Shown here: positions 1 to 20,079 of the stretch, piece after piece
Numbering within the stretch: the first letter of the stretch is position 1
How the letters are laid out: the number at the start of each line of letters is the position of its first letter
Assembly: GCA_040755995.1 (NCBI GenBank)
Contig: JBFMAF010000050.1
Coordinates: 1-28,410, forward strand
Direction of reading: 5' to 3'
Source: Acidobacteriota bacterium
Lineage (GTDB): Bacteria; Acidobacteriota; CAIWXX01
DNA length: 28,410 nt
Translations under genes and position numbers: made by a program
The notes under the pieces: generated by a model
Seen by the model: the letters and a program-made list of their open reading frames with translations, nothing else
Database searches by the model: none
Told to the model about the DNA's origin: nothing

Positions 1-2
1 AA

Positions 3-314
3 TGCATGGCGCCGGTTCTGCAGGACGGCGCCGTCGTCAGCGTCCGCGCATCGCGCTGGTACTGGCCCGGCGATGTGATCGCATACGTCAACGCATGCAA
101 TCAACTGCGCGTGCATCGGGTGATTGGGTACCTTCCCGGCAGGAGCGGACTCCGTTTGATTACGCAGGCCGACACATGCGAGGCTCCGGATTCGCCTGTT
201 TCCTTCGGCAGCGTGATCGGGAAGACTGGACCTGTTCCGGCCTGGAGGCGTGTTCAGGCCACTGGCCGTTTTCTTCGACTCGCCTGCCGATGGCTGTGCA
301 GGAGGATCTCCTGA
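3..314 (+). CDS. S24/S26-family (signal peptidase I/LexA-like) peptidase, RiPP-cluster type; probably 5'-truncated by the window edge
   Basis: Frame of ORF 6..314 is open to the window edge: C-MAPVLQDGAVVSV...PGDVIAY...RVHRVIG...LITQADTCEAPDSPV...VIGK. This matches the S26 pattern (S)MxPxLxxG, GD(V/I)V, HR(V/I), TxGDN, D-x-P-V, IGK. It lies next to HprK-like and PqqD genes. Confidence 0.75.
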   Translation, partial: CMAPVLQDGAVVSVRASRWYWPGDVIAYVNACNQLRVHRVIGYLPGRSGLRLITQADTCEAPDSPVSFGSVIGKTGPVPAWRRVQATGRFLRLACRWLCRRIS

Positions 315-1321
315 GCTTCGGAGAACGCTATCTGAGGAATCCCGCCGCATTTCCCGCAGGGGTCGCGGGCGAGCCGTGGGGTGACCGGTGTCTGGCTATT
401 CTGTTTGTGGGTGGTCCGTATACTTTTTCGGGACTAAACGCAGGGCAGGAACAGTCCGTCCGGCAGAATTACCAAGGGTCGCTCGCTCATGACAAGACGC
501 CTGGCGTAGAGTCACGCATTCTCAAAGCAGCCGATAGTGTGTTCCTTCGCTTCGACCTGCGCGGGTGGGTTCTGTCTTTCGACTTTGCACACGATCCGGA
601 GGCGGTGCGTGTGGCAGGCATCGATACCCTGGCACGACTCGATCTGTCTTCCAGGCTGCGGGGCGCTCTCTGGACGCCGGTTGGCGACGGCCCCGGATTC
701 GGGGGAATTTTCGAGAACTATTTGCGCGTGCTGCTAGCCTACCGGGTCATGGAATGCGGCGGCGCCCTCATTCATAGCGCTGCGGCAGCCGACAAGAATG
801 GAGGTGCCTATCTTTTTGTCGGCCAGTCCGGGGCCGGCAAGACAACGATCTCGATGTTGAGTCGTGAAGAAGGACTGACGGTCCTCCACGATGATCTCAA
901 CGTGGTTTTCCCCACGAAATCGGGGCCCATGCTCACACCTGTCCCCTTTTGGGGCGATCCGAACCTGCAGGCAGGCGAACGGCGCCCGTATCCGCTGCGC
1001 TCTATTTTCCGCCTCAGCAAGAGCGATCGGAACGGCTTGGAGCCGATGGAATTCAGCGAGACGATTGCCACTCTCCTGGCATGCTCACCGTGCGTCAACC
1101 ACGACACCTATCGGCTGGATACTCACGTCGCAAACCTGGAAGCTCTGGTGAATTCCATTCCCGGGTACCGGCTCGCCTTTTCACGGGATGGAGGATTCAG
1201 TGACTTCTGCGACAGTGTTCGATCCGGAGCGGGTGATGGAACCATCCACGATCTTCCGGCTGCGAAGCGACGTTCGATACCGCCTGTTGTTTTCCAAAGC
1301 CGTGGTCGTCCGTCAATCTAG
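290..1321 (+). CDS. HPr kinase-related P-loop protein (ScmC/HprK-related, RiPP-associated)
   Basis: LIHSAAA (HPrK-type H-x-x motif), Walker A GQSGAGKTT, LHDDLNVV di-Asp motif, P-F-W-G, YPLRSIFRL. ATG at 290 overlaps the 3' end of the peptidase. The upstream part of track ORF 2..1321 overlaps that gene and is not used. Confidence 0.8.
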   Translation: MAVQEDLLSFGERYLRNPAAFPAGVAGEPWGDRCLAILFVGGPYTFSGLNAGQEQSVRQNYQGSLAHDKTPGVESRILKAADSVFLRFDLRGWVLSFDFAHDPEAVRVAGIDTLARLDLSSRLRGALWTPVGDGPGFGGIFENYLRVLLAYRVMECGGALIHSAAAADKNGGAYLFVGQSGAGKTTISMLSREEGLTVLHDDLNVVFPTKSGPMLTPVPFWGDPNLQAGERRPYPLRSIFRLSKSDRNGLEPMEFSETIATLLACSPCVNHDTYRLDTHVANLEALVNSIPGYRLAFSRDGGFSDFCDSVRSGAGDGTIHDLPAAKRRSIPPVVFQSRGRPSI

Positions 1322-1514
1322 TCTCGAGGTGCTGGCCCTCAACGAATCGGGAGCCCGGGTGCTGGAGCTGGTGGCGTCAGGAGTCACAGCAGAAGCCCTC
1401 ATATCAACCATGTTGGAAGAATATGAGGTAAGCAGGGCAGCTCTCCAAGAGGATGTATCCAGTTTCCTTCAGGAGTTGCAGGAAGCCGGCGTAGTCGAGT
1501 CCACGACTGCGTAA
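1236..1514 (+). CDS. Stand-alone PqqD-family RiPP recognition element (RRE)
   Basis: 92 aa with LALNESGARVLELV...LEEYEVS...DVSSFLQELQEAGVV, a typical PqqD/RRE pattern. GGAG lies upstream of ATG 1236; alternative start 1188. Confidence 0.88.
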   Translation: MEPSTIFRLRSDVRYRLLFSKAVVVRQSSLEVLALNESGARVLELVASGVTAEALISTMLEEYEVSRAALQEDVSSFLQELQEAGVVESTTA

Positions 1515-1527
1515 GCGAAGACGGCCC

Positions 1528-1713
1528 TCAGGAGCTGATCGGGCCTGATGGGCATAGTCCCGGGTTGCCCTTTGCGGGTGGTGATGGCGCGCAGACTTGA
1601 GCCTGCGCCTCCAACGGCTCGCGGCTCAGAATTCGCGGCCGCTGCCATTTCTTTTTCGTTGGCCTGGTGTTCTGAGGCCTGCTCTTTTCAACTCGTGGGT
1701 CTTTGGCTCGCAT
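1528..1713 (-). CDS. Putative RiPP precursor peptide (61 aa)
   Basis: AGGAGA RBS 7 nt before the ATG. Leader motif KKKWQRPRI ([YW]xxPx[LI] RRE-binding type), then REPLEAQA and core QVCAPSPPAKGNPGLCPSGPISS. Flanked by the RRE and radical SAM genes. Confidence 0.82.
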   Translation of the reverse strand: MRAKDPRVEKSRPQNTRPTKKKWQRPRILSREPLEAQAQVCAPSPPAKGNPGLCPSGPISS

Positions 1714-2685
1714 ACTTGCGTCTCCTCAACAGCTGGTCTCGGGCGCCGCTCACATGGGGAAGCGGCATCGGCCTGCTCTCGCTCTGTACATGCTCCAGGA
1801 TTTCAGCTCTTTGCTTGGCGCCGGGATAGACGGAGAGGGGATCGTGGCTGATCCTTGTGGCCAAACCGGGGCAGAATGCAAGCAGGGGCCCCTGCGATCC
1901 GTATCGCGAAACAATCCCGGCCGCCTCGGACGTCAACCGGCGGATGCTTTGCAGTTCCGGCGAACCATCCCAGATCTCGCGAATCGATTTCCGATGAAGA
2001 TTGCCGACGCTGCGACGCCACTGCACACGCGGATACACGCTGCCGTAGGGATCCACGGCGATTCCTGAAGATCCTGCGCCGCAATGCTTGCCCGGGCCCG
2101 CCGGCGACGCTTCATCCGGGCGAGGAGCCGGGACTTGTCTTCTCTGCGGGCCGGCGCCATGATTTGCAGCGGCCTGGCCCCGCGCAAATTCAATGCGGTA
2201 GAGCCGCAGCATCCCTTCCCGCGATGGACGGATCGTGAGGGGCAAGAGATCACCGTCATCGCGAGGCGTAACTTCCGGATCGAACCGGAGCTGAACCCCA
2301 AATCCATCGGCGATTGCAGACATCTCCTCAACTTCTTCCTCATTCCACCGCGTCAACACGGAATGGAGCCTGGCGCACAGGCCGACGGACTGCATTTCGG
2401 ACAGATTCGTGATCAGCCGGGAAAAACTGCCCGGTACACGGGTCTGGCGGTCGTGGGTTTCGGCCCTTGCTCCGTGAAGGCTGACTTCCACCTGGCACGG
2501 GCCGATTTCAGTCTTGATGCGACGCAGCATCTCGCCGCAAAGCGCGTGACCGTTGGACTTGATTCGGACCACGAAGCCGAGACGGCGCGCGGCGACACCC
2601 AGCTCAATAAAATCTCGATGGGCCAGCGGCTCGCCGCCGGCCAGTCGTCGTGCAAGGATTGTGAATCATACGCTGGTCTCGTCAT
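1688..2685 (-). pseudogene. Radical SAM/SPASM maturase, disrupted (no CxxxCxxC, start out of frame, SPASM Cys lost)
   Basis: The frame of ORF 1688..2572 extends upstream as stop-FTILARRLAGGEPLAHRDF...VVRIKSNGH. It then has VEVSLHGARAETHDRQTRVPGSF and SPASM-like CGAG...AVDPYGSVYP(R)VQW...GNL...SIREIW...FCPG. The RBS-led ATG at 2685 (MTRPAY) is in another frame, and no CxxxCxxC is encoded between it and GGEP. Confidence 0.78.
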
Positions 2686-2731
2686 CGCTGACCCCTCTTG
2701 AGATCGTCGCAAGACCGGAACCGAGGCGACA

Positions 2732-4708
2732 CTACTGGACGCCACCAATCTTGAAGACGCCGGATCCGTAGGTACCGGCGTAGACCACAAGCGGATTCGA
2801 AGGATCGATCGCCAGGGTCCTGACGATCTTGTTCGTCAGCCCAGCGTTCAGGGCCTTCCATGTACTTCCCCCGTTCGTGCTCTTGAACACGCCAGCGCCC
2901 CCGGTGCCGATGTAGAGAGTGCGGGGTGCCGTGGGATCGACGGCGATTGAATCGATATTACGCGAGGCGCTGCTGTTCAAGCCGCTGCTCATGCGTGTCC
3001 AGGACGTCCCTCCGTTCGTGCTCTTGAATACTCCCGAGTCGGTCGTCCCGGCGTAGAGAGTGCCTACAGTCGTCGAGTCGACCGAAAGGGTCCGCACCTT
3101 GAGAGAGGTCAAGCCGCCGTTCATGAGATCCCAGCTATCGCCACCGTTTGTGCTCTTGAAGGCGCCGATGTTGTAGACTGCGGCGTATATAGTGCTCGGG
3201 ACGGCGGGGTCGATCGCCAGAGCCATGATCTGGGTCATGCCGTCGCCGGATTTCGCCCATCGAGCACCGCCGTTAGTGCTCTTGAAGACGCCGGAGAAAT
3301 CGACAATAGCATACAGGGTGTCCGGGTTGAGAGGATCGATCGCAAGATCATTCACCCAACAGAGAGCACCCAGGCCGTTGCTCGCTCTTTTCCACTTCTC
3401 TCCGCCGTTCGTGCTCTTGTAGATGCCTGCACCCGAGGTACCCGCATAGAGGGTCGATGGTGTGGAAGGATCGATGACCAGAGAAAGGACCTTCTGTGAA
3501 AAACTTTTCTTCAGGCCACTATTCATCGGCAACCAGGTCCCACCCGCATCCGTGCTCTTGTGCACACCACCGTGGTCGGTCCCCACGTACACTGTGCCCG
3601 GGGAGACGGGGTCGATCGCGAGGGCCTCGACATAAGACGCGATCAGTCCCGTGTTCCTGACCCCCCACGTCGAGCCGCTGTCGGTGCTCGCGAACACCCC
3701 GCCTTCGGTTCCCGCATAGAGGTTCCCGGGGGCGGCCGGGTCAAAGGCGATGTCGTGAGTGGGAAGCGTATCGAGACCAGCGTGGGCCTTTGCCCACTGA
3801 CTCCCGCCATTCGTGCTTCGCAGGATCCCCTGCTCCGTCCCAACGTAGACCGTGTTCGGATCCGTGGGGTGAACTACCACGCAGTACCCATTGACACGGT
3901 AGGAATAGCTGGTGGCGGTCCAACTGCTTCCGCCATTGTTGGTCTTGAACACGCCTGTCAAGGTGATCACGTAGAGCTGGGTCGGGGAGCTGGCGGCGAT
4001 TCCAAGAGCCCGAGTATTATCCAGTCCGGTGAGGCCAGTGTTGGCAGCCTCCCACGAATCACCGCCGCCGGTGGTCCTGTAGACGCCACCGTCGGCAAGC
4101 ATGGCGTAGACAGTGGCGGGGCTTGTTGACGTGATCACCAGATCGCGGACTAGCCGCTCCTCAGGCAGCCCAGTGTTGAAAGCTTGCCAGGTGGCACCGC
4201 CGTCGGTGCTCGCGAACACGCCCGCGTACTCGGCCGCCGCGTACAGGACTGTCGGCGTGACCGGATCGGCGACAACTCTCCAGATGTCCAAGGTCGCCAG
4301 TCCGCTGTTGCTCGCCTTCCAATGGGCACCTCCGTCGGTGCTCTTGAATACTCCCTTGCCCGTCACCGCGGCGTAGAGGGTGCCGGGATTTCCGGGGACC
4401 GGGGTCACTCTGTAAACGAAGCCATTACTCATGCCGCGGTTTGCGCTCGCCCAGCTTGCACCACCATCCGTGCTCTTAAACAAGCCCCCACTGCCCGCGC
4501 TGGCGTAAAGCGTCCTGGTGTTCGCAGGGTCGACCGCAATGTCAAGGATGTACCCGCTTTCCGGACCGATCTGCTTCCATCGCACCGCGCCCGACCGTAA
4601 CGGCGCCGGATCTCGCTCCGACCTCACAGCGCTCTGCATCGACTCGGAACCTGCCTGGAACCACACGCCCAGGAGCGCCGGAAGGAGCATGTACGTTCGT
4701 ACTCTCAT
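2732..4708 (-). CDS. Secreted BNR/Asp-box repeat beta-propeller protein (GH74/VPS10/Ycf48-like fold)
   Basis: N-terminal signal-like segment. About 13 S-T-[DN]-G-G-x-x-W Asp-box repeats alternate with LAIDPxxPxTLYAGT. GGAGG lies 7 nt before ATG 4708; GTG 4711 is an alternative start. Confidence 0.88.
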   Translation of the reverse strand: MRVRTYMLLPALLGVWFQAGSESMQSAVRSERDPAPLRSGAVRWKQIGPESGYILDIAVDPANTRTLYASAGSGGLFKSTDGGASWASANRGMSNGFVYRVTPVPGNPGTLYAAVTGKGVFKSTDGGAHWKASNSGLATLDIWRVVADPVTPTVLYAAAEYAGVFASTDGGATWQAFNTGLPEERLVRDLVITSTSPATVYAMLADGGVYRTTGGGDSWEAANTGLTGLDNTRALGIAASSPTQLYVITLTGVFKTNNGGSSWTATSYSYRVNGYCVVVHPTDPNTVYVGTEQGILRSTNGGSQWAKAHAGLDTLPTHDIAFDPAAPGNLYAGTEGGVFASTDSGSTWGVRNTGLIASYVEALAIDPVSPGTVYVGTDHGGVHKSTDAGGTWLPMNSGLKKSFSQKVLSLVIDPSTPSTLYAGTSGAGIYKSTNGGEKWKRASNGLGALCWVNDLAIDPLNPDTLYAIVDFSGVFKSTNGGARWAKSGDGMTQIMALAIDPAVPSTIYAAVYNIGAFKSTNGGDSWDLMNGGLTSLKVRTLSVDSTTVGTLYAGTTDSGVFKSTNGGTSWTRMSSGLNSSASRNIDSIAVDPTAPRTLYIGTGGAGVFKSTNGGSTWKALNAGLTNKIVRTLAIDPSNPLVVYAGTYGSGVFKIGGVQ

Positions 4709-4729
4709 CACACGACCTCCTTGAAACCC

Positions 4730-5013: not shown

Positions 5014-7137
5014 TCATTTCACTTCGAAGCTCACACTGTTGCTCTTCTTGTTCTTAGCCACAAGCACGTAGACGCCCACGATCTGACCCTTCTTGAGTTT
5101 CCTCGGGACGGTCACCTTCAGGCTGGTTGTCCTTGCCCGTGTCACCCTGGCCTTGCGGGCGCCGAAGTAGACGACGTTGTTGGCAGCGGACTTATCGAAG
5201 CCCGCGCCACGGATTGTCGCGCTGCTCCCCGGTTTCCCGCTCCCCGGCCTGATGGACGAAATCTCCGGGCACCCCGCGCAAGTCATCGCGGCGACGAGGG
5301 CGTAGGACTGCATGCCCGTACATCCCGTCGCATCGGTGGCCGTGATTTCGATCGGGAAACTGCCGGTCTCGGCTGGAGCGCCGGAGAAGGAGCCCGCGAT
5401 GGAAAGCGAGAGGCCGTGGGGAAGAGTGCCCGAGGTGAGCGAGTAGGTATACGGCGCGGTTCCGCCGGCGGCGTCAAGTGAGGTCGAGTAGACCTCGTTC
5501 AGAACGGCCTGGGGCAACGCTGCCGGGAGGAGCGTGATCGATGGGCACGGCCCGGTCGACACATGGATGATGAAATCGACGGTCGCCGTGTACCCGTCGG
5601 CATCGGTGGAACGAAGTGTGAATGAGTAACTGCCGCCGGCCGTCGGCGTGCCTGAGATGAGATTGGCCGCCAGTCCGATTCCCGGTGGCAATGATCCCGA
5701 TTCGATCTGATAGACGTACGGGGCGACGCCCCCCGCCGAGGACAGTGCGATGGAGTAGGGAATGCCGAACTGTGCCCCCGGCAGGGAGGCGGGAGAGATG
5801 ACGATCGGCGAGCTGCAGAGCAAATAGTTGGGGGCTTCTGCCGCCGCCCCGGTCGACAGCGAGGTCACGCCCGATGGGGGCGTCTTCAGCGTGAGGACCG
5901 CGCTGACAGCGAGCGACGTCGTTGCGGTGTACCCTGCATCCGCATCGAGGAGCGGGCCGCAACCTGAGTCGATCGAGCCGAAGAGGTTCGTCCGCATCAC
6001 CTGTGCGTCGATATCCGAGTCCGCGGGGAAGGATCTCCCTCCCAGGTAGTAGCCGGACTTGCCCGCTCGATCCACACTCAGGAAGGCCTCGGCGCTGGAA
6101 TACCCCCCGAGCGTGCTCTTCTTCTGCCAGATGATGGACCCGCCTTTGCCGATCTTGGCGAACCAGGCCCTGTAATTGCCATCATAGGTCGTGCCTCCGA
6201 TCACCCAGTTGCCATCCACGGTCGCGACGGCACCGAGTGCATCCCAGGATCCGGAGTAGACAGTCTGCCAGCTGATCGTGCCGGTGGAGGTCAGTTTGAG
6301 ACACCACGCGTCGTGCGACCCATAAGAGTTGGATCTCCCCCCAACCAGGAACCCGCCGTCTGCCGCGCTTCGCACGAAGTTGAAACTCTCGGAGAGCCCG
6401 CCGCCGTAGATCTTCATCCAGGTCACCGTTCCCGCTGCATTGGCTTTGAGACAGAATCCTCTGGCGTAGGAACCGGATCCGAAGGAGTAGGTTGAGCCGG
6501 CAATGATGAAGCCGCCGTCGGCGGTCAGGTCTACGTCACTCGCCCACTCGTCCTTGCTCCCGCCGTAGACAACCGCCCAGAGTGGAACTCCGTTGGCATC
6601 GAGTCTGAGATATCCGATATCGAAGTTGTCAGCGCCCTCCAGGATCACCCAGCCTGCCACGATGTATCCGCCATCCCCCACCTGGCGGACTGCCTTTCCC
6701 TCGCCGCGGCACGATCCCCCATACCGTTTGTTCCAGACCTCGTTGCCAGCGCTGTCCAGCTTCAGGCACCAGACTCGGTCCTCGTCGGAGACATTTGAAT
6801 ACCCCGTGGCGATGTATCCGCCGTCAGAGGTCTGCTGGATGTCATAGATGACCTCATCCTCGTCCGCCAGACCAAACCGTCTCTGCCACTCGGTGTCACC
6901 CGAGGCGTTCAGCTTGACCACCCAGCCGTCTGAAGACGTTCCCAGGTCGTAGTAGCCGGCGAAAGCGAACCCGCCGTCGCTCGTTGCGACGCCGGCATCG
7001 AGCTCATCGTAGGGCGCGGCGCCGCTCCTGCCGAGTGTGCGCAACCACTGCGCACCCGCGCCGACCTCAGCCGCGAGGCCGAGCAGGAGCGTCGTGGATA
7101 CTGCGGCCAAGCAGAGGCCCAGAGCAATTCGTTTCAT
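5014..7137 (-). CDS. Secreted protein: DGGY-repeat beta-propeller + two putative Ig (He_PIG-like) domains + C-terminal basic IPT/TIG domain
   Basis: GAGGAGG RBS before ATG 7137 and signal peptide. Repeats T-x-DGG-[YF]-I-x-x-G / W-x-x-KL-[DN]-x-x-G-x-x-x-W. Two GGxAPY...SGxLPxG units. Terminal PEISSIRPGSGKPGSSATIRGAGF...VYFG...LKVTVP domain. Confidence 0.88.
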   Translation of the reverse strand: MKRIALGLCLAAVSTTLLLGLAAEVGAGAQWLRTLGRSGAAPYDELDAGVATSDGGFAFAGYYDLGTSSDGWVVKLNASGDTEWQRRFGLADEDEVIYDIQQTSDGGYIATGYSNVSDEDRVWCLKLDSAGNEVWNKRYGGSCRGEGKAVRQVGDGGYIVAGWVILEGADNFDIGYLRLDANGVPLWAVVYGGSKDEWASDVDLTADGGFIIAGSTYSFGSGSYARGFCLKANAAGTVTWMKIYGGGLSESFNFVRSAADGGFLVGGRSNSYGSHDAWCLKLTSTGTISWQTVYSGSWDALGAVATVDGNWVIGGTTYDGNYRAWFAKIGKGGSIIWQKKSTLGGYSSAEAFLSVDRAGKSGYYLGGRSFPADSDIDAQVMRTNLFGSIDSGCGPLLDADAGYTATTSLAVSAVLTLKTPPSGVTSLSTGAAAEAPNYLLCSSPIVISPASLPGAQFGIPYSIALSSAGGVAPYVYQIESGSLPPGIGLAANLISGTPTAGGSYSFTLRSTDADGYTATVDFIIHVSTGPCPSITLLPAALPQAVLNEVYSTSLDAAGGTAPYTYSLTSGTLPHGLSLSIAGSFSGAPAETGSFPIEITATDATGCTGMQSYALVAAMTCAGCPEISSIRPGSGKPGSSATIRGAGFDKSAANNVVYFGARKARVTRARTTSLKVTVPRKLKKGQIVGVYVLVAKNKKSNSVSFEVK

Positions 7138-7160
7138 GAATGCCTCCTCACTATCCGTTT

Positions 7161-7176
7161 CGCACAAACCGTGCCA
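7161..7176 (-). promoter_or_regulatory. Sigma54 (-24/-12) promoter candidate for the 7137->1528 gene run
   Basis: Minus strand reads TGGCACGGTTTGTGCG = TGGCAC with GG-N10-GC spacing. Predicted +1 near 7150, just before the RBS of the 7137 gene. Confidence 0.65.
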
Positions 7177-7570
7177 GTCCCTCTGATGCCTCAATTAGGC
7201 CGTCTGTCAGTGAATTGTGGCTGCGGGTGATCGAGGGATGGGTACGCCGGTACATCGTCTAGGTCGCGGGAGGTGTTGCGCGAGGCGCCGAAAGCCGTTC
7301 GGACCAAGCAGAAACAAGGCGAGTACCAGAGTTCGCAACAGCTGAGGACTGCCGTTCCCATCCAGAACTCGGTTCCAGGAAGCAGCACCCGCTACCCAGT
7401 CCGCACGGCGCCTGTCCACTGGTGGCGGTGTCAGGGCTGAGCAGCAGAGCGAGGGCGGGGGTCTGGGCTATAAGAAGTTGCTTTTCCGATCGAACAACGG
7501 GAATACTACTGAAGTAGTAGCTCCGGCATGCAGACAGAGGCAGAGAGACCCATCCTCCTTCCCCGCGGAC

Positions 7571-8309: not shown

Positions 8310-11300
8310 TCATAGGCGGGGTTGGGCCGAGCCTGCGGGCCTGCGGCCCTGAATGAGATCCTGGGCGAGCTGGTACAGGTCGATCAGCCGGCCCGGGGGC
8401 GACAGAATCGCATCGCCGTCTGCGGCGATCATCCTCGGGGTGCTTGAGACGATGCGTCGAACGCGCTCGCGTGTCCATTCCTCGCTGGCCGGGTGGTGAA
8501 GAGCCATTGAGAGGAGCTCCGCAGCCCCGGCGCTATCTCCCTGTTTGGAGGAGAGGACGCCCCAGCTCACCAGGACCTCGAGCATCATCGGCTCGGCAGC
8601 GATTGAAAGCGACGTCTCGAGCGCCTCCCGCAGTGATCGGGCCGCCGATTCGTGGTCACCGCGCTCGCATGCGAGATTGCCCAGATTGTCCAGAGTGACG
8701 GCCACGCCGAGACGGTATCCCATGCCTCGCTTGATCGACAGACTCTCCAGATAGTGATGCTCGGCTTCGTCATACTCACCGAGGCGATGGGCGGCAAGTC
8801 CGAGGTTGTTGAGCGAGATGGCGATGCCTCGCCGGTCCCCGACTTTCCTGCGGAGATCGAGGCCGTCCTGGTAGAAGCGGCGGGCTCCTTTGTAGTCACC
8901 ACAATCGTGGGCTATCGAGCCCAGGCTGTTGAGCGAAGCGGCGGCTCCGACCAGGTCACACTGCTCCTTCTTGATCGACAGACTTTCGCGGAACAGCCTC
9001 CGTGCTTCGTCATGTTCACCGAGATCGAGAGCCACATGGCCAAGGCCGTCAAGCATCCATGCGGCGCCTCGCCGATCACCGATCTCGTTGGCGATTTCGA
9101 GACCTTCCTCCAACAGCGGCCTTGCATCGAGGTACTTCCCCCGCGCACAGAGCGCGTCACCCATGTGAAGGAGCGCAGTCACGCGCCCGGATCGACCGGC
9201 CGCGCCGGCAAGACGAGAAAGGGCGGCGCCAAGCACGCTTTCGGCTTCGGAATAGAGGCCCAGTCGGCACAGGAATCCCCCGCGTGCCGCGAGGAGCCTG
9301 CCGATGAGCACCGAGCCGCGCGCGGTTTCAGCGAGCTCACTGTCTGCCAGGGCCCGCAGCGCGCGCCCTACCAAAGACTCGCCCTCCTGAAATCGACCCC
9401 GCACGTCGTGATAGGTGACGAGAGCGTCGAGAGCATCATCGAACAGAGATGCATCCGCGAACTGGCACGCCCACTCCCACGAGACGCGGGCGTTTTCGAG
9501 ATCTTCATCGATCTCGGCCAGCGCGCGCATCTGGGCATCCCCTGTCATGGAGCTCTCTCTGTAGCGAAGAAACGCCCGATAGAACTGCGCATGCTGTCGC
9601 CGGACCCGATGGGATTTCTCTTCATCGCGATCGAGCTCCGCAGCGGCGTAGTCCCTCAGAACGACGTGCTGATGATAACGGCCGGCGGAGTCATGCCGGA
9701 GCAGGGATTTGTCGACCAGAGACGCGAGAGTGCTCGGTGAGGTCCCCGCTACGGCGCGGGCTGCGTCGAGCCGGAAGCCATCCCGAAAGACGGAGAGGGA
9801 AGCGAAGGCGTCGCGTTCATGAGCCTGAGACTGATTCCAGGCGTACTCGAATATCGCGCGCAGGCTGCGCTGTCGGGGATGCGTATCGGCATGGGAGGAT
9901 TCGAGGAAATCGAGGCTGTTCTCGACCTCCTCCGCAATCGTCGCCACGGGCAGAGCGCGCACCCAGGCCGCCGCCATCTCGATGGCGAGCGGCATCCCGC
10001 CGAGCAGTCGGCAGATGCGGACGACGTGCGGCAGCTCCTCTCGGTTCAGTGAGAATCCAAGCCGGGATCGACGAGCAGCCTGCTCGAAGAGCCGTACGGA
10101 ATCAGTCTGTGCAGCCGCTTCTCCTGCGGACGCTTCCGGGACCGTGAGTCCACCCACCTCCAACACCCACTCACCTCTCAATCGAACCCGCTCTCTCGAG
10201 GTGACGAGGAGCTTTGAACACGGCGACACTGCCAGGATATCCGCCAGAAGGTCGCGGCCTTCCAAGAGATGCTCGAAGTTGTCCAGTACCAGAAGCAGGC
10301 TTTTTTCGCGGAAGAAATCGAGGAGATGAGCTCGCGATGAACCCTGATCGAACGGTGCGAGACGCACGGCATCAGCGAGCGCCGCCACGAGATCCTGGTG
10401 AGACGCCAGCCCCTCCAGCGGTACGCAGAAGACTTGGTCGGGGAACCCGGCAGCTTCGCCAGGCGCCGCCTGCCGCGCAGCAGCTTCCAGGGCCAACCTG
10501 GTCTTGCCGATTCCCCCCGGTCCAACCAGCGTCAGGAGACGGCAGGCCGGATCGGCGAGAAGCCGGCTGATCTCCGCAAGCTCGGTTTCTCGCCCGATGA
10601 AAGGCGTTGGAGTGACCGGAAGGCGCGGCAGGGATGGGCCGGCGGGGACCGGCGAGGGCGGGGCCCAGCCGTCCTGCACTCGTTCATCGACCGTACCCGT
10701 CCGAATCCGTTCGAATAATTCCGTCGTCTCCTTCGACGGTGACGTCCGCAACTCCTCGGCGAGACTGCGCCTGCATGTTTCATAGTGACTGAGCGCCGCT
10801 CCACGTTGGCCGGTCAGCACAAGCATTTCCATCAGAGTGCGGTGGGCACTCTCATTCCACGGATTGATGGCGAGGAGCCTGCGCGCGCAGAGAAGGGCGA
10901 TGTCACTGGCGCCTCTCTGACGGTGGAGCACGGTGAGGCTCGCCAACGCGGTCTCGGCGAGATGGCGGAACCGTTCTCGCTCGATCGATAGCCAGTCCTC
11001 AAACTCCGGCGCATCCTCGATGAACAGACCGTCGAGCAGATCGCCGCGGTAAAGGTCGATCGCCGCTGTCAACGCCTCTATCCGGCCGGCCGCCCCGGAT
11101 TCGTCCACCGCCGCTTCAACCTGCATGCACATCTGGAGCTCCTCGGCGTCAATCCAGAAGCGCGGCTGACGGACGAGCTCCACCGCCAGCCGCGTCGCCG
11201 TGAAGGGGAGAGATCCTTCGGGGGAAGCGAGCCGACGTCGCAGGTTCCAGAGCGCTCGCCGAAGGTTCCGTGCACCGCGGTCCTCAGGCAGACCTCCCCA

Positions 11301-18362: not shown

Positions 18363-18459
18363 AGCAGCTCCGCCGGGCTGGGCAACCGGCTGAGACTATT
18401 GAAACCCGGATTGACCCATTAGAATTAGGTTGGGCAGTGAGGGAATATGGAAGAGCAAA

Positions 18460-20079
18460 ATGCGATCACGCCTGCCTTTGTCTCTCTCGCTCTGGGTAGC
18501 AGCCTCGTCTCTGGTCATCGCCCCCTGCGAGGGTGCCCCAGTCATCTCAATCTCACTTCAACCAATAGCGTCTGGACTTAGCAGTCCGGTCTATGTCACA
18601 AACGCCGGCGACGGCAGTGGCAGACTGTTCGTTGTCGAGCAGCCGGGAACGATCCGGATATACAAGAACGGGTCTCTGCTTGCCGCACCATTCCTCGACA
18701 TCAGGACCAAGGTGCTTTCGGGTGGCGAGCGAGGCTTGCTGAGCACGGCTTTTCACCCGCGATTCGAGTCTAATCGCCGCTTCTTCGTCTACTACACTCG
18801 CCAGACGGATGGCGATCTGGTCATATCGGAATTCACGGCATCGGCTGCGAATCCGGATCAAGCAAACACCACCGAGAGACAGCTCCTGATCATCGATCAC
18901 ACCGCATACTCCAACCACAACGGCGGCCAGCTTCACTTCGGCCCGGACGGGTTTCTTTACATCTTCACGGGCGACGGCGGAGGCGGCGGGGATCCGCTGG
19001 GGAGCGGGCAGAACATCAACTCGTTCCTCGGCAAGGTGCTGCGAGTCGACGTCGACTCGGGAAGTCCATATGGAATCCCCTCCGACAATCCTTACGCTGC
19101 CGCTGCCGGGCTGGATGAGATCTACGCGACCGGATTTCGCAATCCCTGGCGAGCTTCCTTCGATCGTCTCACCGGTGCTCTCTACGCGGGCGACGTCGGC
19201 CAGAACGCCTGGGAAGAAGTCGACGTCGTTCAGATCGGCCGAAACTACGGCTGGAACATCATGGAAGGATCTCACTGCTATCCGCCAGGCTCAAGCTGCA
19301 ATGCGGCCGGGCTGGTACAACCCGTGGTCGAGTACAGTCATGCGGGAGGCAACTGCTCTATAACGGGCGGCTATGTGTACCGCGGATCGATGTTCCCGGC
19401 GCTGGCCGGAACCTACTTCTACGCCGACTTCTGCACGGGCATAATCTGGGGACTTGGCGGCGGAGTCGCTTCGCAGCTGCTTGACACGAATCTGAGTATT
19501 GCCTCCTTCGGCGAGGACGAGACCGGCGAACTGTACATTGTCGACCTCGGCGGAACAGTCAGCCGGATCGTGGGACCACCCGGTCCATGCACGCTGACGT
19601 GCCCGCGCGACATCACGGTTACCGATCTCGACGGCGATGGGAGCGAGAAGGTGACCTTCTCTGATCCACAGACCAGCGGCGCATGCGGCATAGTCACCTG
19701 TGCCCCACCATCCGGTTCTGCGTTTCCGCTCGGCACGACCCAGGTCAATTGCACTTCGTCGGAAGGCGGCGGCTCGTGTACATTCAGCGTGACTGTCCTC
19801 GCCCGGACCTCGGTAGTGCAGGTCCTCGGCTGCAGGCCGCCAGGTGGGCCGGCGGGTGCCCGCCTGGACATTCGAGTCATCGGCACGGGATTCGCGCCGG
19901 GCGCCGGGCTCGTGTTGGGCGAAGGGATCAAACCGGCCAAGACACGCCGGGTATCAGCGAAGGTGCTCACGGCGACGATCAAGATCATGCTGAACGCCAG
20001 GAAAGGCTTCCGCAACGTAACCGTCAAGAATCCCGATGGAACCAGGGCCACGTGCACTCGCTGCTTCAGGGTCAAATGA
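18460..20079 (+). CDS. Secreted PQQ-dependent sugar dehydrogenase-family (GSDH) propeller + HYR-like + basic Ig/IPT-like C-terminal domain
   Basis: Signal peptide; RLFVVEQPG, GERGLLSTAFHP, NHNGGQLHFGPDGFLY, GFRNPWR, DVGQNAWEEVD, SITGGYVYRG, SFGEDETGELY. HYR-like CAPPSGSAFPLGTTQVNCT follows. Confidence 0.88.
   Translation: MRSRLPLSLSLWVAASSLVIAPCEGAPVISISLQPIASGLSSPVYVTNAGDGSGRLFVVEQPGTIRIYKNGSLLAAPFLDIRTKVLSGGERGLLSTAFHPRFESNRRFFVYYTRQTDGDLVISEFTASAANPDQANTTERQLLIIDHTAYSNHNGGQLHFGPDGFLYIFTGDGGGGGDPLGSGQNINSFLGKVLRVDVDSGSPYGIPSDNPYAAAAGLDEIYATGFRNPWRASFDRLTGALYAGDVGQNAWEEVDVVQIGRNYGWNIMEGSHCYPPGSSCNAAGLVQPVVEYSHAGGNCSITGGYVYRGSMFPALAGTYFYADFCTGIIWGLGGGVASQLLDTNLSIASFGEDETGELYIVDLGGTVSRIVGPPGPCTLTCPRDITVTDLDGDGSEKVTFSDPQTSGACGIVTCAPPSGSAFPLGTTQVNCTSSEGGGSCTFSVTVLARTSVVQVLGCRPPGGPAGARLDIRVIGTGFAPGAGLVLGEGIKPAKTRRVSAKVLTATIKIMLNARKGFRNVTVKNPDGTRATCTRCFRVK

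Follow-up and report, generated by a model that had tools for sequence, protein, structure and literature searches.

The first 2,685 nucleotides of the 28,410-nt stretch of DNA analysed here (the window; contig JBFMAF010000050.1 of the Acidobacteriota assembly GCA_040755995.1, called C50 below) carry five genes: for an S26-like peptidase, an HprK-like kinase, a RiPP (ribosomally synthesised, post-translationally modified peptide) recognition element (RRE), a 61-aa precursor peptide and a radical S-adenosylmethionine (rSAM)/SPASM enzyme. They represent a real, uncharacterised variant of the cassettes for linear polyphosphorylated peptides (LPPs), one that also encodes a radical SAM enzyme, is coupled to a C25 surface protease and is decayed in this genome. 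In the reading that we favour by a narrow margin over its being wrong, this is a damaged copy of a cassette that is widespread. Intact copies of it would likely cross-link a short two-Cys peptide via Cys, likely phosphorylate its last Ser and likely serve the large secreted C25 (PorU-like) cysteine protease encoded next to them.

All five open reading frames (ORFs) were located where the original prediction, made from the letters alone, had placed them, including the 61-aa peptide with its strong ribosome-binding site. The macrocyclisation and phosphorylation that it proposed for the peptide are, here too, what we infer from the genes. The LPP relative and the C25 partner are absent from that prediction, and it likewise missed the local decay. 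The start of the window is the start of contig C50 (1-28,410), hence no upstream sequence could be read there. The features are as follows.

3..314, + strand: S26/SipW-like leader peptidase, its 5' end cut off by the contig start; TIGR02228 E 2.7e-7, below cut-off
290..1321, + strand: HprK-like kinase (Walker A GQSGAGKT, DD motif); its start codon is either ATG 290 or CTG 311, the latter overlapping the S26 stop
1236..1514, + strand: stand-alone PqqD-type RRE; PF05402 56.5 bits, cut-off 23.4
1528..1713, - strand: 61-aa precursor peptide gene; ribosome-binding site GAGGAG at 1722-1727, 8 nt 5' of the ATG
1600..1713, - strand: predicted leader with a W-x-x-P RRE motif and the C-terminal end L-E-A-Q-A
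1531..1599, - strand: predicted 23-aa core with Cys3, Lys10, Cys16 and terminal Ser-Ser
1688..~2640, - strand: 5'-truncated rSAM/SPASM remnant; frame open to 2665, homology from the GGEP motif at 2638
2631..4711 (gene 2732-4711), - strand: BNR/Vps10-repeat secreted-protein gene and its 3' flank, which together occupy the place of the rSAM 5' end; outside the cassette

The Pfam PqqD and SPASM models were the only ones to score above cut-off among the five ORFs. The S26 protein has Cys-Met-Ala-Pro at the nucleophile position, where LppS has Ser, and is 40-46 % identical to its cassette homologues; a second copy, 96 % identical, at C41:3418-2807 supplies the missing start. The kinase shares 38-42 % identity with its homologues, and the rSAM remnant 53-57 % with intact orthologues. 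The solved chains nearest to the RRE are TbiB1, TfuB1, 9x8z and 9x90 (E 0.009-0.2). Neither a sigma-70 promoter nor an informative terminator was found.

The precursor family and its cassette

The 61-aa ORF is a real gene. It is more than a chance reading frame because it gave the single match to the leader-plus-core grammar of the family in a six-frame scan of the 7.7 Mb genome (with a pattern itself derived from the family) and because it shows a synonymous bias: against 67 distinct close homologues the mismatches at codon positions 3, 1 and 2 numbered 1452, 614 and 453, and the codon differences were synonymous in 1240 and non-synonymous in 501 cases. The precursor gave no Pfam or NCBIfam match at E 0.01 and no PDB match, and in Atlas only unnamed clusters were found (0.92-0.94).

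Precursor relatives were confirmed by tblastn in at least 17 GTDB loci and 58 metagenome loci. The titles of the GTDB loci name Thermoanaerobaculia, Blastocatellia and other Acidobacteriota, and in one case Clostridia. An iterated profile gave 151 matches across 170 loci, and a 48-row profile retrieved 2,358 proteins at E<=0.01, falling into 1,439 clusters at 50 % identity. The view of the locus as a real RRE-dependent RiPP system was supported, and no characterised product of it was found in the literature searched.

The family grammar, with positions counted from the aromatic residue of [YW]xxP, consists of [YW]-x-x-P, Glu13, Ala16, Cys19 and then a second Cys, 5-16 residues after the first. 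Cys occupies position 19 in 124 of 129 distinct precursors, all 124 of which have Ala at 16. The segment between the two Cys contains Lys in 108 of 113 cores, and Lys or Arg in 111; Trp or Tyr occurs in only 9. The distinct locus precursors end in Ser (131/133) or, in the other two, Thr, and 143 of the best 150 family representatives are Ser-terminated.

Two variants of the precursor gene were also observed. Two or three precursors per locus occur in L106, L107, L112, L116, L124, L130 and L091 (L and P numbers denote loci and proteins), the last with two tandem C25-precursor pairs. In P0289, P0302, P0305, P0321, P0327 and P0385 an RRE (PF05402) is fused in frame with a C-terminal LSCGK-type precursor, which would thereby carry its own recognition element.

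The 17 GTDB loci selected by their precursor contain the rSAM, kinase and RRE genes without exception, an S26 gene in 15, an NTP_transf_5 gene in 14 and a C25 protease gene in 11, so homologues of the precursor do lie near rSAM and PqqD genes, as the original prediction required. The intact rSAM of L005 matches 103 of the 401 sampled genomes of the phylum (E<=1e-35). A second set of 80 loci of up to 20 kb each, centred on the rSAM gene (78 from the listed genome matches and two paralogous loci of this genome), yielded the RRE in 74, the kinase in 66, a family precursor in 59, C25 in 58, S26 in 33 and the nucleotidyltransferase in 8. These gene counts were made with home-made profiles, the families being confirmed with library models. 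Loci L018-L032, duplicates of larger loci, were excluded from all three locus sets, from the C25 adjacency and from the identity correlations, and the unpublished genome G025 enters the tallies only.

Gene order is variable. L005, L042 and L097 hold intact cassettes, and L097 has the convergent layout of the window together with an intact rSAM. Window-type loci are neighboured by O-antigen-ligase-like, sugar-transferase, TPR and nucleotidyltransferase genes. The expectation that more enzymes lie upstream of the contig start was borne out in part by these homologues: a nucleotidyltransferase is found in 14 of the 17 GTDB loci and 8 of the 80 rSAM loci, and TPR/O-antigen-ligase-like and nucleotidyltransferase genes take the place of the second rSAM that had been envisaged.

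Several neighbouring peptide systems were noticed in the loci. A hidden second precursor of 25 aa at L005:7862-7936(-) combines a leader of the lasso type (YxxPxL...G...T-R) with a core predicted to be Phe-Ser-Phe; the same gene is present in L001, L002, L004, L009, L011, L014, L034, L036, L037, L041, L044, L045, L069, L081 and L085. It sits between a secreted DUF3344 gene and a PqqD-B2-HprK_rel_A-like-nucleotidyltransferase set without a cyclase, accompanies the B2 gene in 14 of the 16 loci that have one and is a candidate substrate of an HPr-rel-A-type cassette. The genome of the window (G000) also carries, at C12:5759-15999, a lasso-peptide-like cluster in a glycosyltransferase locus, with an RRE, a kinase, NTP_transf_5 and a B2-like gene, a short precursor at 8344-8502 (YxxP leader) and a 643-aa gene standing where a cyclase would be expected. 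At C10:160776-162354(-) of the same genome lies what we take to be a mycofactocin-like set, consisting of a short peptide ending ...MAQPYIRFT, a PqqD-like protein, an rSAM enzyme and a UbiA-like gene. Searches of plasmids for related kinases gave distant kinases only. A Butyrivibrio plasmid (L171:5620-7643, NZ_CP146964.1) carries another LPP-like variant: in the midst of polysaccharide genes it encodes an ABC exporter, a kinase, PqqD, S24/S26 and a 57-aa YxxP precursor rich in Cys, no rSAM being annotated in the 12 kb read.

Nearest known systems and predicted chemistry

The LPP pathway is the closest known system. As described for Bacillota (Popov et al. 2026, PMC13381572), LPP clusters (LppA/K/B/S/D/N) encode SpI, an RRE, a kinase resembling HprK, an NTP transferase and an exporter. 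The leader, YxxPxVLxHQxIxFETxxS, is cut after Thr and Ser3 of the core is polyphosphorylated; the target of LppK is thus an internal Ser. [quoted passage not shown] The register is shared as well: counted from the aromatic residue, Thr 16 and Ser 19 of LPP correspond to Ala 16 and Cys 19 of the cassette, and the F-E-T end of the LPP leader to E-A-x-A with the predicted cut site A-x-A, at the same distance of 16 residues. Cys takes the place of LPP core Ser3 in 124 of 124 in-register precursors and in 95 of 95 database matches.

Beyond LPP, the cassette has the second Cys, the invariant terminal Ser, the rSAM/SPASM enzyme and the C25 protease. The LPP product is linear and its clusters lack a cyclising enzyme, whereas an rSAM/SPASM enzyme, which may cyclise the peptide, is present in all 17 precursor-selected GTDB loci. 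LPP clusters have an MsbA-like exporter; in the cassette no dedicated exporter was found among the 26 proteins scanned from intact loci, no systematic exporter search having been made. To judge from this comparison, the cassette is not an LPP cluster and likely works like one up to the cut. The main text of the LPP paper makes no mention of radical SAM, SPASM, C25 or Acidobacteria; in its supplement, Radical_SAM and Peptidase_C25 appear solely among the columns of a matrix of all domains. The paper states that the roles of LPPs and paeninodins are unknown (PMC13381572).

Phosphorylated lasso peptides such as paeninodin and pseudomycoidin (PadeK, PsmK, PsmN; PMC6993621) share an HprK-like kinase, an RRE, an NTP_transf_5-type partner and a Ser-terminal precursor with the cassette. 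They differ in having a B2 protease where the cassette has S26, and the cassette adds two Cys and the rSAM. No lasso cyclase was detected among 17 window ORFs and 26 intact-locus proteins, which do not cover all loci; B2 occurs in 1 of the 80 rSAM-selected loci and, where common, is paired with a different precursor. The sacti- and ranthipeptide systems of SkfB, CteB, PapB and StsB have in common with the cassette an rSAM with SPASM/Twitch and a Cys-bearing, RRE-bound precursor, and the combination of such an rSAM with a Cys-containing precursor is indeed found in the intact homologues, the window enzyme being truncated. In the cassette, though, the RRE is a separate protein and all NCBIfam maturase models score far below cut-off. 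To our knowledge, the kinase, S26 and C25 partners are not part of sactipeptide or ranthipeptide systems.

A mix of PqqD, HprK-like and rSAM/SPASM proteins is also shared with the SynChlorMet, GeoRSP and HPr-rel-A systems (TIGR04248-04251, TIGR04302-04303, TIGR04352-04353). The likeness to SynChlorMet that had been suggested was not sustained: in window and intact proteins ScmC scored 26-41 bits (33 for the window kinase) against a cut-off of 125, ScmD 30-36 against 100 and ScmE/F no more than 103 against 400, and most loci have one rSAM. The assignments to GeoRSP, HPr-rel-A/B, ACGX, mycofactocin and PQQ were rejected, all models being below cut-off. The literature searched, which takes in few subscription journals, yielded no paper describing this cassette.

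By analogy with the RREs of lasso peptides and LPPs, the RRE would first bind the [YW]xxP leader. The rSAM/SPASM enzyme, with its three invariant auxiliary-cluster Cys, would then install one or two Cys thioethers. CxxxCxxC and three SPASM Cys are kept by all 99 of the 99 intact enzymes compared; the other Cys are variable and the AuxII set is often lost. In alignments the three correspond to SPASM Cys of CteB and PqqE; SkfB, PqqE, BlsE and CteB are the best PDB matches of the profile. An open AuxI site has been described for CteB and SkfB, while PqqE, SuiB and anSME are fully ligated (PMC6231123). Since three invariant auxiliary Cys make up the open-site pattern and Trp or Tyr is found in so few cores, Cys thioethers installed by the rSAM are the best guess.

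The HprK-like kinase likely phosphorylates the C-terminal Ser, as PadeK and PsmK do, PsmN then adding a hexose to that phosphate (PMC6993621). The terminal Ser would be the natural target because Cys replaces LPP Ser3 and the last Ser is invariant. Where present, the NTP_transf_5 enzyme may put a sugar on the phosphate in the manner of PsmN. The leader is likely removed by the S26 peptidase after A-x-A, releasing x-x-C...; in the window precursor the cut is predicted after L-E-A-Q-A, since the precursors share the LPP register exactly. The S26 family keeps its His and Asp motifs; of its 70 distinct sequences, 33 have Ser at the nucleophile position and 33 have Cys. The product would finally be made together with the C25 protein.

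A different chemistry, to which we give about a quarter of our belief, would leave the Cys free or as a disulfide. The rSAM would then catalyse an epimerisation or bond Lys or Gly through C-C or C-N, and the last Ser might not be the site at which the kinase acts. The core has no conserved acceptor residue or acceptor spacing (5-16 aa), for which reason the acceptor carbon of a thioether is not nameable, and the two Cys could form a disulfide instead. SPASM enzymes are diverse, PqqE scores as high as SkfB, and LppK acts on an internal Ser. The three invariant auxiliary Cys, as the open-site thioether pattern (PMC6231123), argue against this chemistry, the 9 of 113 cores with Trp or Tyr against aromatic cross-links in particular, and the terminal hydroxyl residue, invariant in 133 of 133 precursors, against another kinase target.

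Genetic coupling of the precursor to a C25 protease

Adjacency and fusion show that the precursor and the C25 protease are genetically coupled, by which no biochemical role is implied. The precursor lies less than 500 nt from the C25 gene on the same strand in 73 of the 91 precursors with C25 in the locus; a further 50 precursors, many on short contigs, have none in the locus. A C25 gene is present in 90 of 103 rSAM-positive and 66 of 298 rSAM-negative genomes. In this genome both Pfam-found C25 genes belong to paralogous cassettes on C33 and C44, and none is near the window.

The fusion protein P0203, 1,426 aa in length, begins like a signal peptide and continues with a C25 domain (943-1282), a Pro/Asp linker and a MYXO-CTERM segment, to end in a complete window-type precursor. 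Its cluster brings together 11 sequences, drawn from JGI, Logan and ENA, of which 8 have one form of the tail and 3 the other, and its C25 domain is closest to those of window-type loci (42-48 %). The fragment P0245 contains MYXO-CTERM and a precursor tail like that of P0203 (28/38 identical). The MYXO-CTERM model TIGR03901 (cut-off 20) gave 26.5 bits for P0203 and 30.9 for P0245; P0203 scored 196 bits with the PorU model NF033707, below cut-off. A region search for further full-length C25-precursor fusions returned the P0203 cluster only, and no C25 fusion was found among the 120 of 137 matches listed in a search for longer precursor-bearing proteins. P0139, where a precursor follows on from C25, was not counted: it is a single member with a junk linker and probably a read-through.

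The basic tail of MYXO-CTERM is cytoplasmic and myxosortase cleaves near its Cys (PMC11980579); in a preprint on myxosortases a term search gave no mention of C25, RiPP or radical SAM. Because the tail is cytoplasmic, the fused precursor would be cytoplasmic, tethered and made 1:1 with the protease. Adjacency together with the fusion behind an anchor suggests that the peptide works with the C25 surface protein.

The partner C25 proteins are 780-3,070 aa long, keep the catalytic His and Cys in 68 of 68 and carry adhesin-like passengers (SdrD_B, DUF11, PKD, fn3). They share with PorU and the gingipains the His-Cys dyad and an upstream PorU-like region, the PorU model matching over ~650 aa. They are unlike PorU in that NF033707 stays below cut-off (at most 283 bits against 420 in 24 proteins), in their large variable passengers, in the MYXO-CTERM of the fusion and in their tie to a RiPP precursor. 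The C25 proteins of L004, L009, L011, L042, L060, L061, L094, L095 and L096 were seen to have a Pro/Ala/Gly linker and a conserved terminal Gly-Glu.

Weighing against the reading of a phosphorylating, C25-serving cassette is that its chemistry is a prediction from the genes, and that the related genomes are not independent, so that the counts overstate. S26 and the nucleotidyltransferase are present in only 33 and 8 of the 80 rSAM-selected loci, and the scanned proteins include no exporter. One clade has an RRE-rSAM-precursor-C25 operon whose kinase gene is 4-10 kb off or outside the 20 kb read; as the terminal Ser is kept there, it may matter otherwise. Thirteen of the 103 rSAM-positive genomes have no C25 match, 66 genomes without this rSAM have C25 genes, and the LSCGK-type precursor clade has no C25 nearby. 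The fusion is known from two protein clusters only, P0245 being too short to show a C25 domain.

What the peptide does for the protease can be envisaged in two ways. The cyclic peptide may regulate C25, as a Lys-loop inhibitor or activator, or be a signal whose output is tied to C25 secretion; we hold this role to be possible, at a strength well short of even. The gingipain family prefers Lys/Arg, and 108 of 113 cores have a Lys in the loop between the Cys. Besides adjacency, co-occurrence and fusion, the pairwise identities of precursor and C25 are correlated across 43 loci (Spearman 0.71), but not above those of precursor and rSAM (0.79) or rSAM and C25 (0.75), so shared descent can explain them.

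A role as anchor is as plausible as a regulatory one, and we give it, too, a low probability. The radical-SAM-cyclised phosphopeptide would be the dedicated anchor or acceptor for a PorU-like transpeptidase, attaching giant adhesin-proteases across Acidobacteriota and other lineages, in some as a cytoplasmic MYXO-CTERM tail. Its N-terminal amine or Lys would attack the acyl-enzyme while the phospho-Ser end is tied to a surface glycan, and the peptide would so stand in for the A-LPS anchor used by PorU in Bacteroidota. PorU is a sortase for which peptides or amino acids can serve as the nucleophile (PMC4560394). The match to PorU with a kept dyad and adhesin-like passengers, the O-antigen-ligase-like, sugar-transferase and nucleotidyltransferase genes around window-type loci, the Lys or Arg of 111 of 113 cores and the 1:1 production forced by the in-frame fusion agree with such a role. 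Against it, all 24 C25 proteins scanned are below the PorU cut-off and the nucleotidyltransferase is present in 8 of 80 loci only. The fusion C25 already has a MYXO-CTERM anchor, and a cytoplasmic peptide (PMC11980579) would need export, for which no exporter was seen among the scanned proteins.

Decay of the copy in the window

That the maturation kit described in the original prediction is intact here was not borne out. The rSAM of the window lacks the first ~60 residues of the family and with them CxxxCxxC, so the motif for the SAM-binding cluster is lost here; CGT at 2027-2029 encodes Arg at a SPASM Cys invariant in 99 of 99 intact enzymes, and 4 of the 6 invariant Cys are absent in all. 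No N-terminal piece of the rSAM was found elsewhere in the genome, whose assembly is 99.84 % complete. A BNR unit has apparently replaced the rSAM 5' end: two other runs have contigs with ~95-96 % identity to 2631-3200, one of which enters unrelated sequence below 2631. No tRNA, no repeats at the rSAM break and no GC anomaly were found.

The kinase has likely suffered a 1-nt frameshift near 1203. Its homologues end ~30 aa earlier, and the C-terminus of the window kinase extends over the RRE gene. In a ~95 %-identical contig (depth 2.9) an additional G after 1203 leads to the stop TGA at 1234-1236, overlapping the RRE ATG (TGATG). Between the window and this ~95 %-identical relative there are 13 non-synonymous differences, at which the family consensus is found in the relative at 5 and in the window at 1. 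The contigs used for these comparisons come from relatives and are of low depth (~2-6 over cassette and junction). A second fragment of the cassette on C41, a 612-nt repeat of 96 % identity, comprises S26 and a truncated kinase. L015, which is frameshifted, was left out of the comparison of window enzymes with intact homologues. A leave-one-out count of changes at invariant sites gave 5 for the window rSAM and 0-10 for the others, and did not single the window out.

It is quite unlikely that the truncation arose in assembly and that the cassette of the organism is in fact intact: the locus stands at a contig start, the genome holds the 612-nt repeat of it and neither a sequencing run (best share 0.08) nor an RNA run containing this genome was found to supply a junction-spanning read, but the missing rSAM piece is nowhere else in a nearly complete assembly, the Cys-to-Arg change and the likely frameshift lie away from the junction, the family consensus is kept more often by the relative (in low-depth contigs), and the copy on C41 is likewise a fragment.

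On these grounds the cassette copy of the window is probably dead and the local peptide probably not matured. Trans-complementation by the C44 and C33 cassettes of the same genome would be unlikely, the rSAM identity being 30-31 %. These two paralogous cassettes, C44:45029-53905 (L164) and C33:38722-45108 (L165), are apparently intact (S26, RRE, C25, rSAM, kinase) and have candidate precursors at C44:47099-47284(-) and C33:44884-45108(-), which are divergent and were missed by the family profile.

Elsewhere in the window, 5014-7194(-) and 18430-20079(+) encode secreted proteins with C-terminal TIG/choice-of-anchor-Z-like domains (NF058597; 22 and 31 bits, cut-off 30), and these ends possibly represent a shared C-terminal sorting domain.

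The copy in the window is a poor experimental target. The cassette rSAM nevertheless gave matches in 103 of the 401 genomes sampled from the phylum, roughly one in four, with no product found in the literature searched, and to the LPP class, described in 2026, the cassette adds radical-SAM chemistry. Predictions are at hand for the cut site, the phosphorylation site and the partner protein. The C25 link and the precursor behind a membrane anchor point to a cell-envelope, not an antibiotic, role. With such a role, C25 proteins that lie outside the type IX secretion system would gain a function, and the envelope link offers a handle on the role of LPPs and paeninodins.

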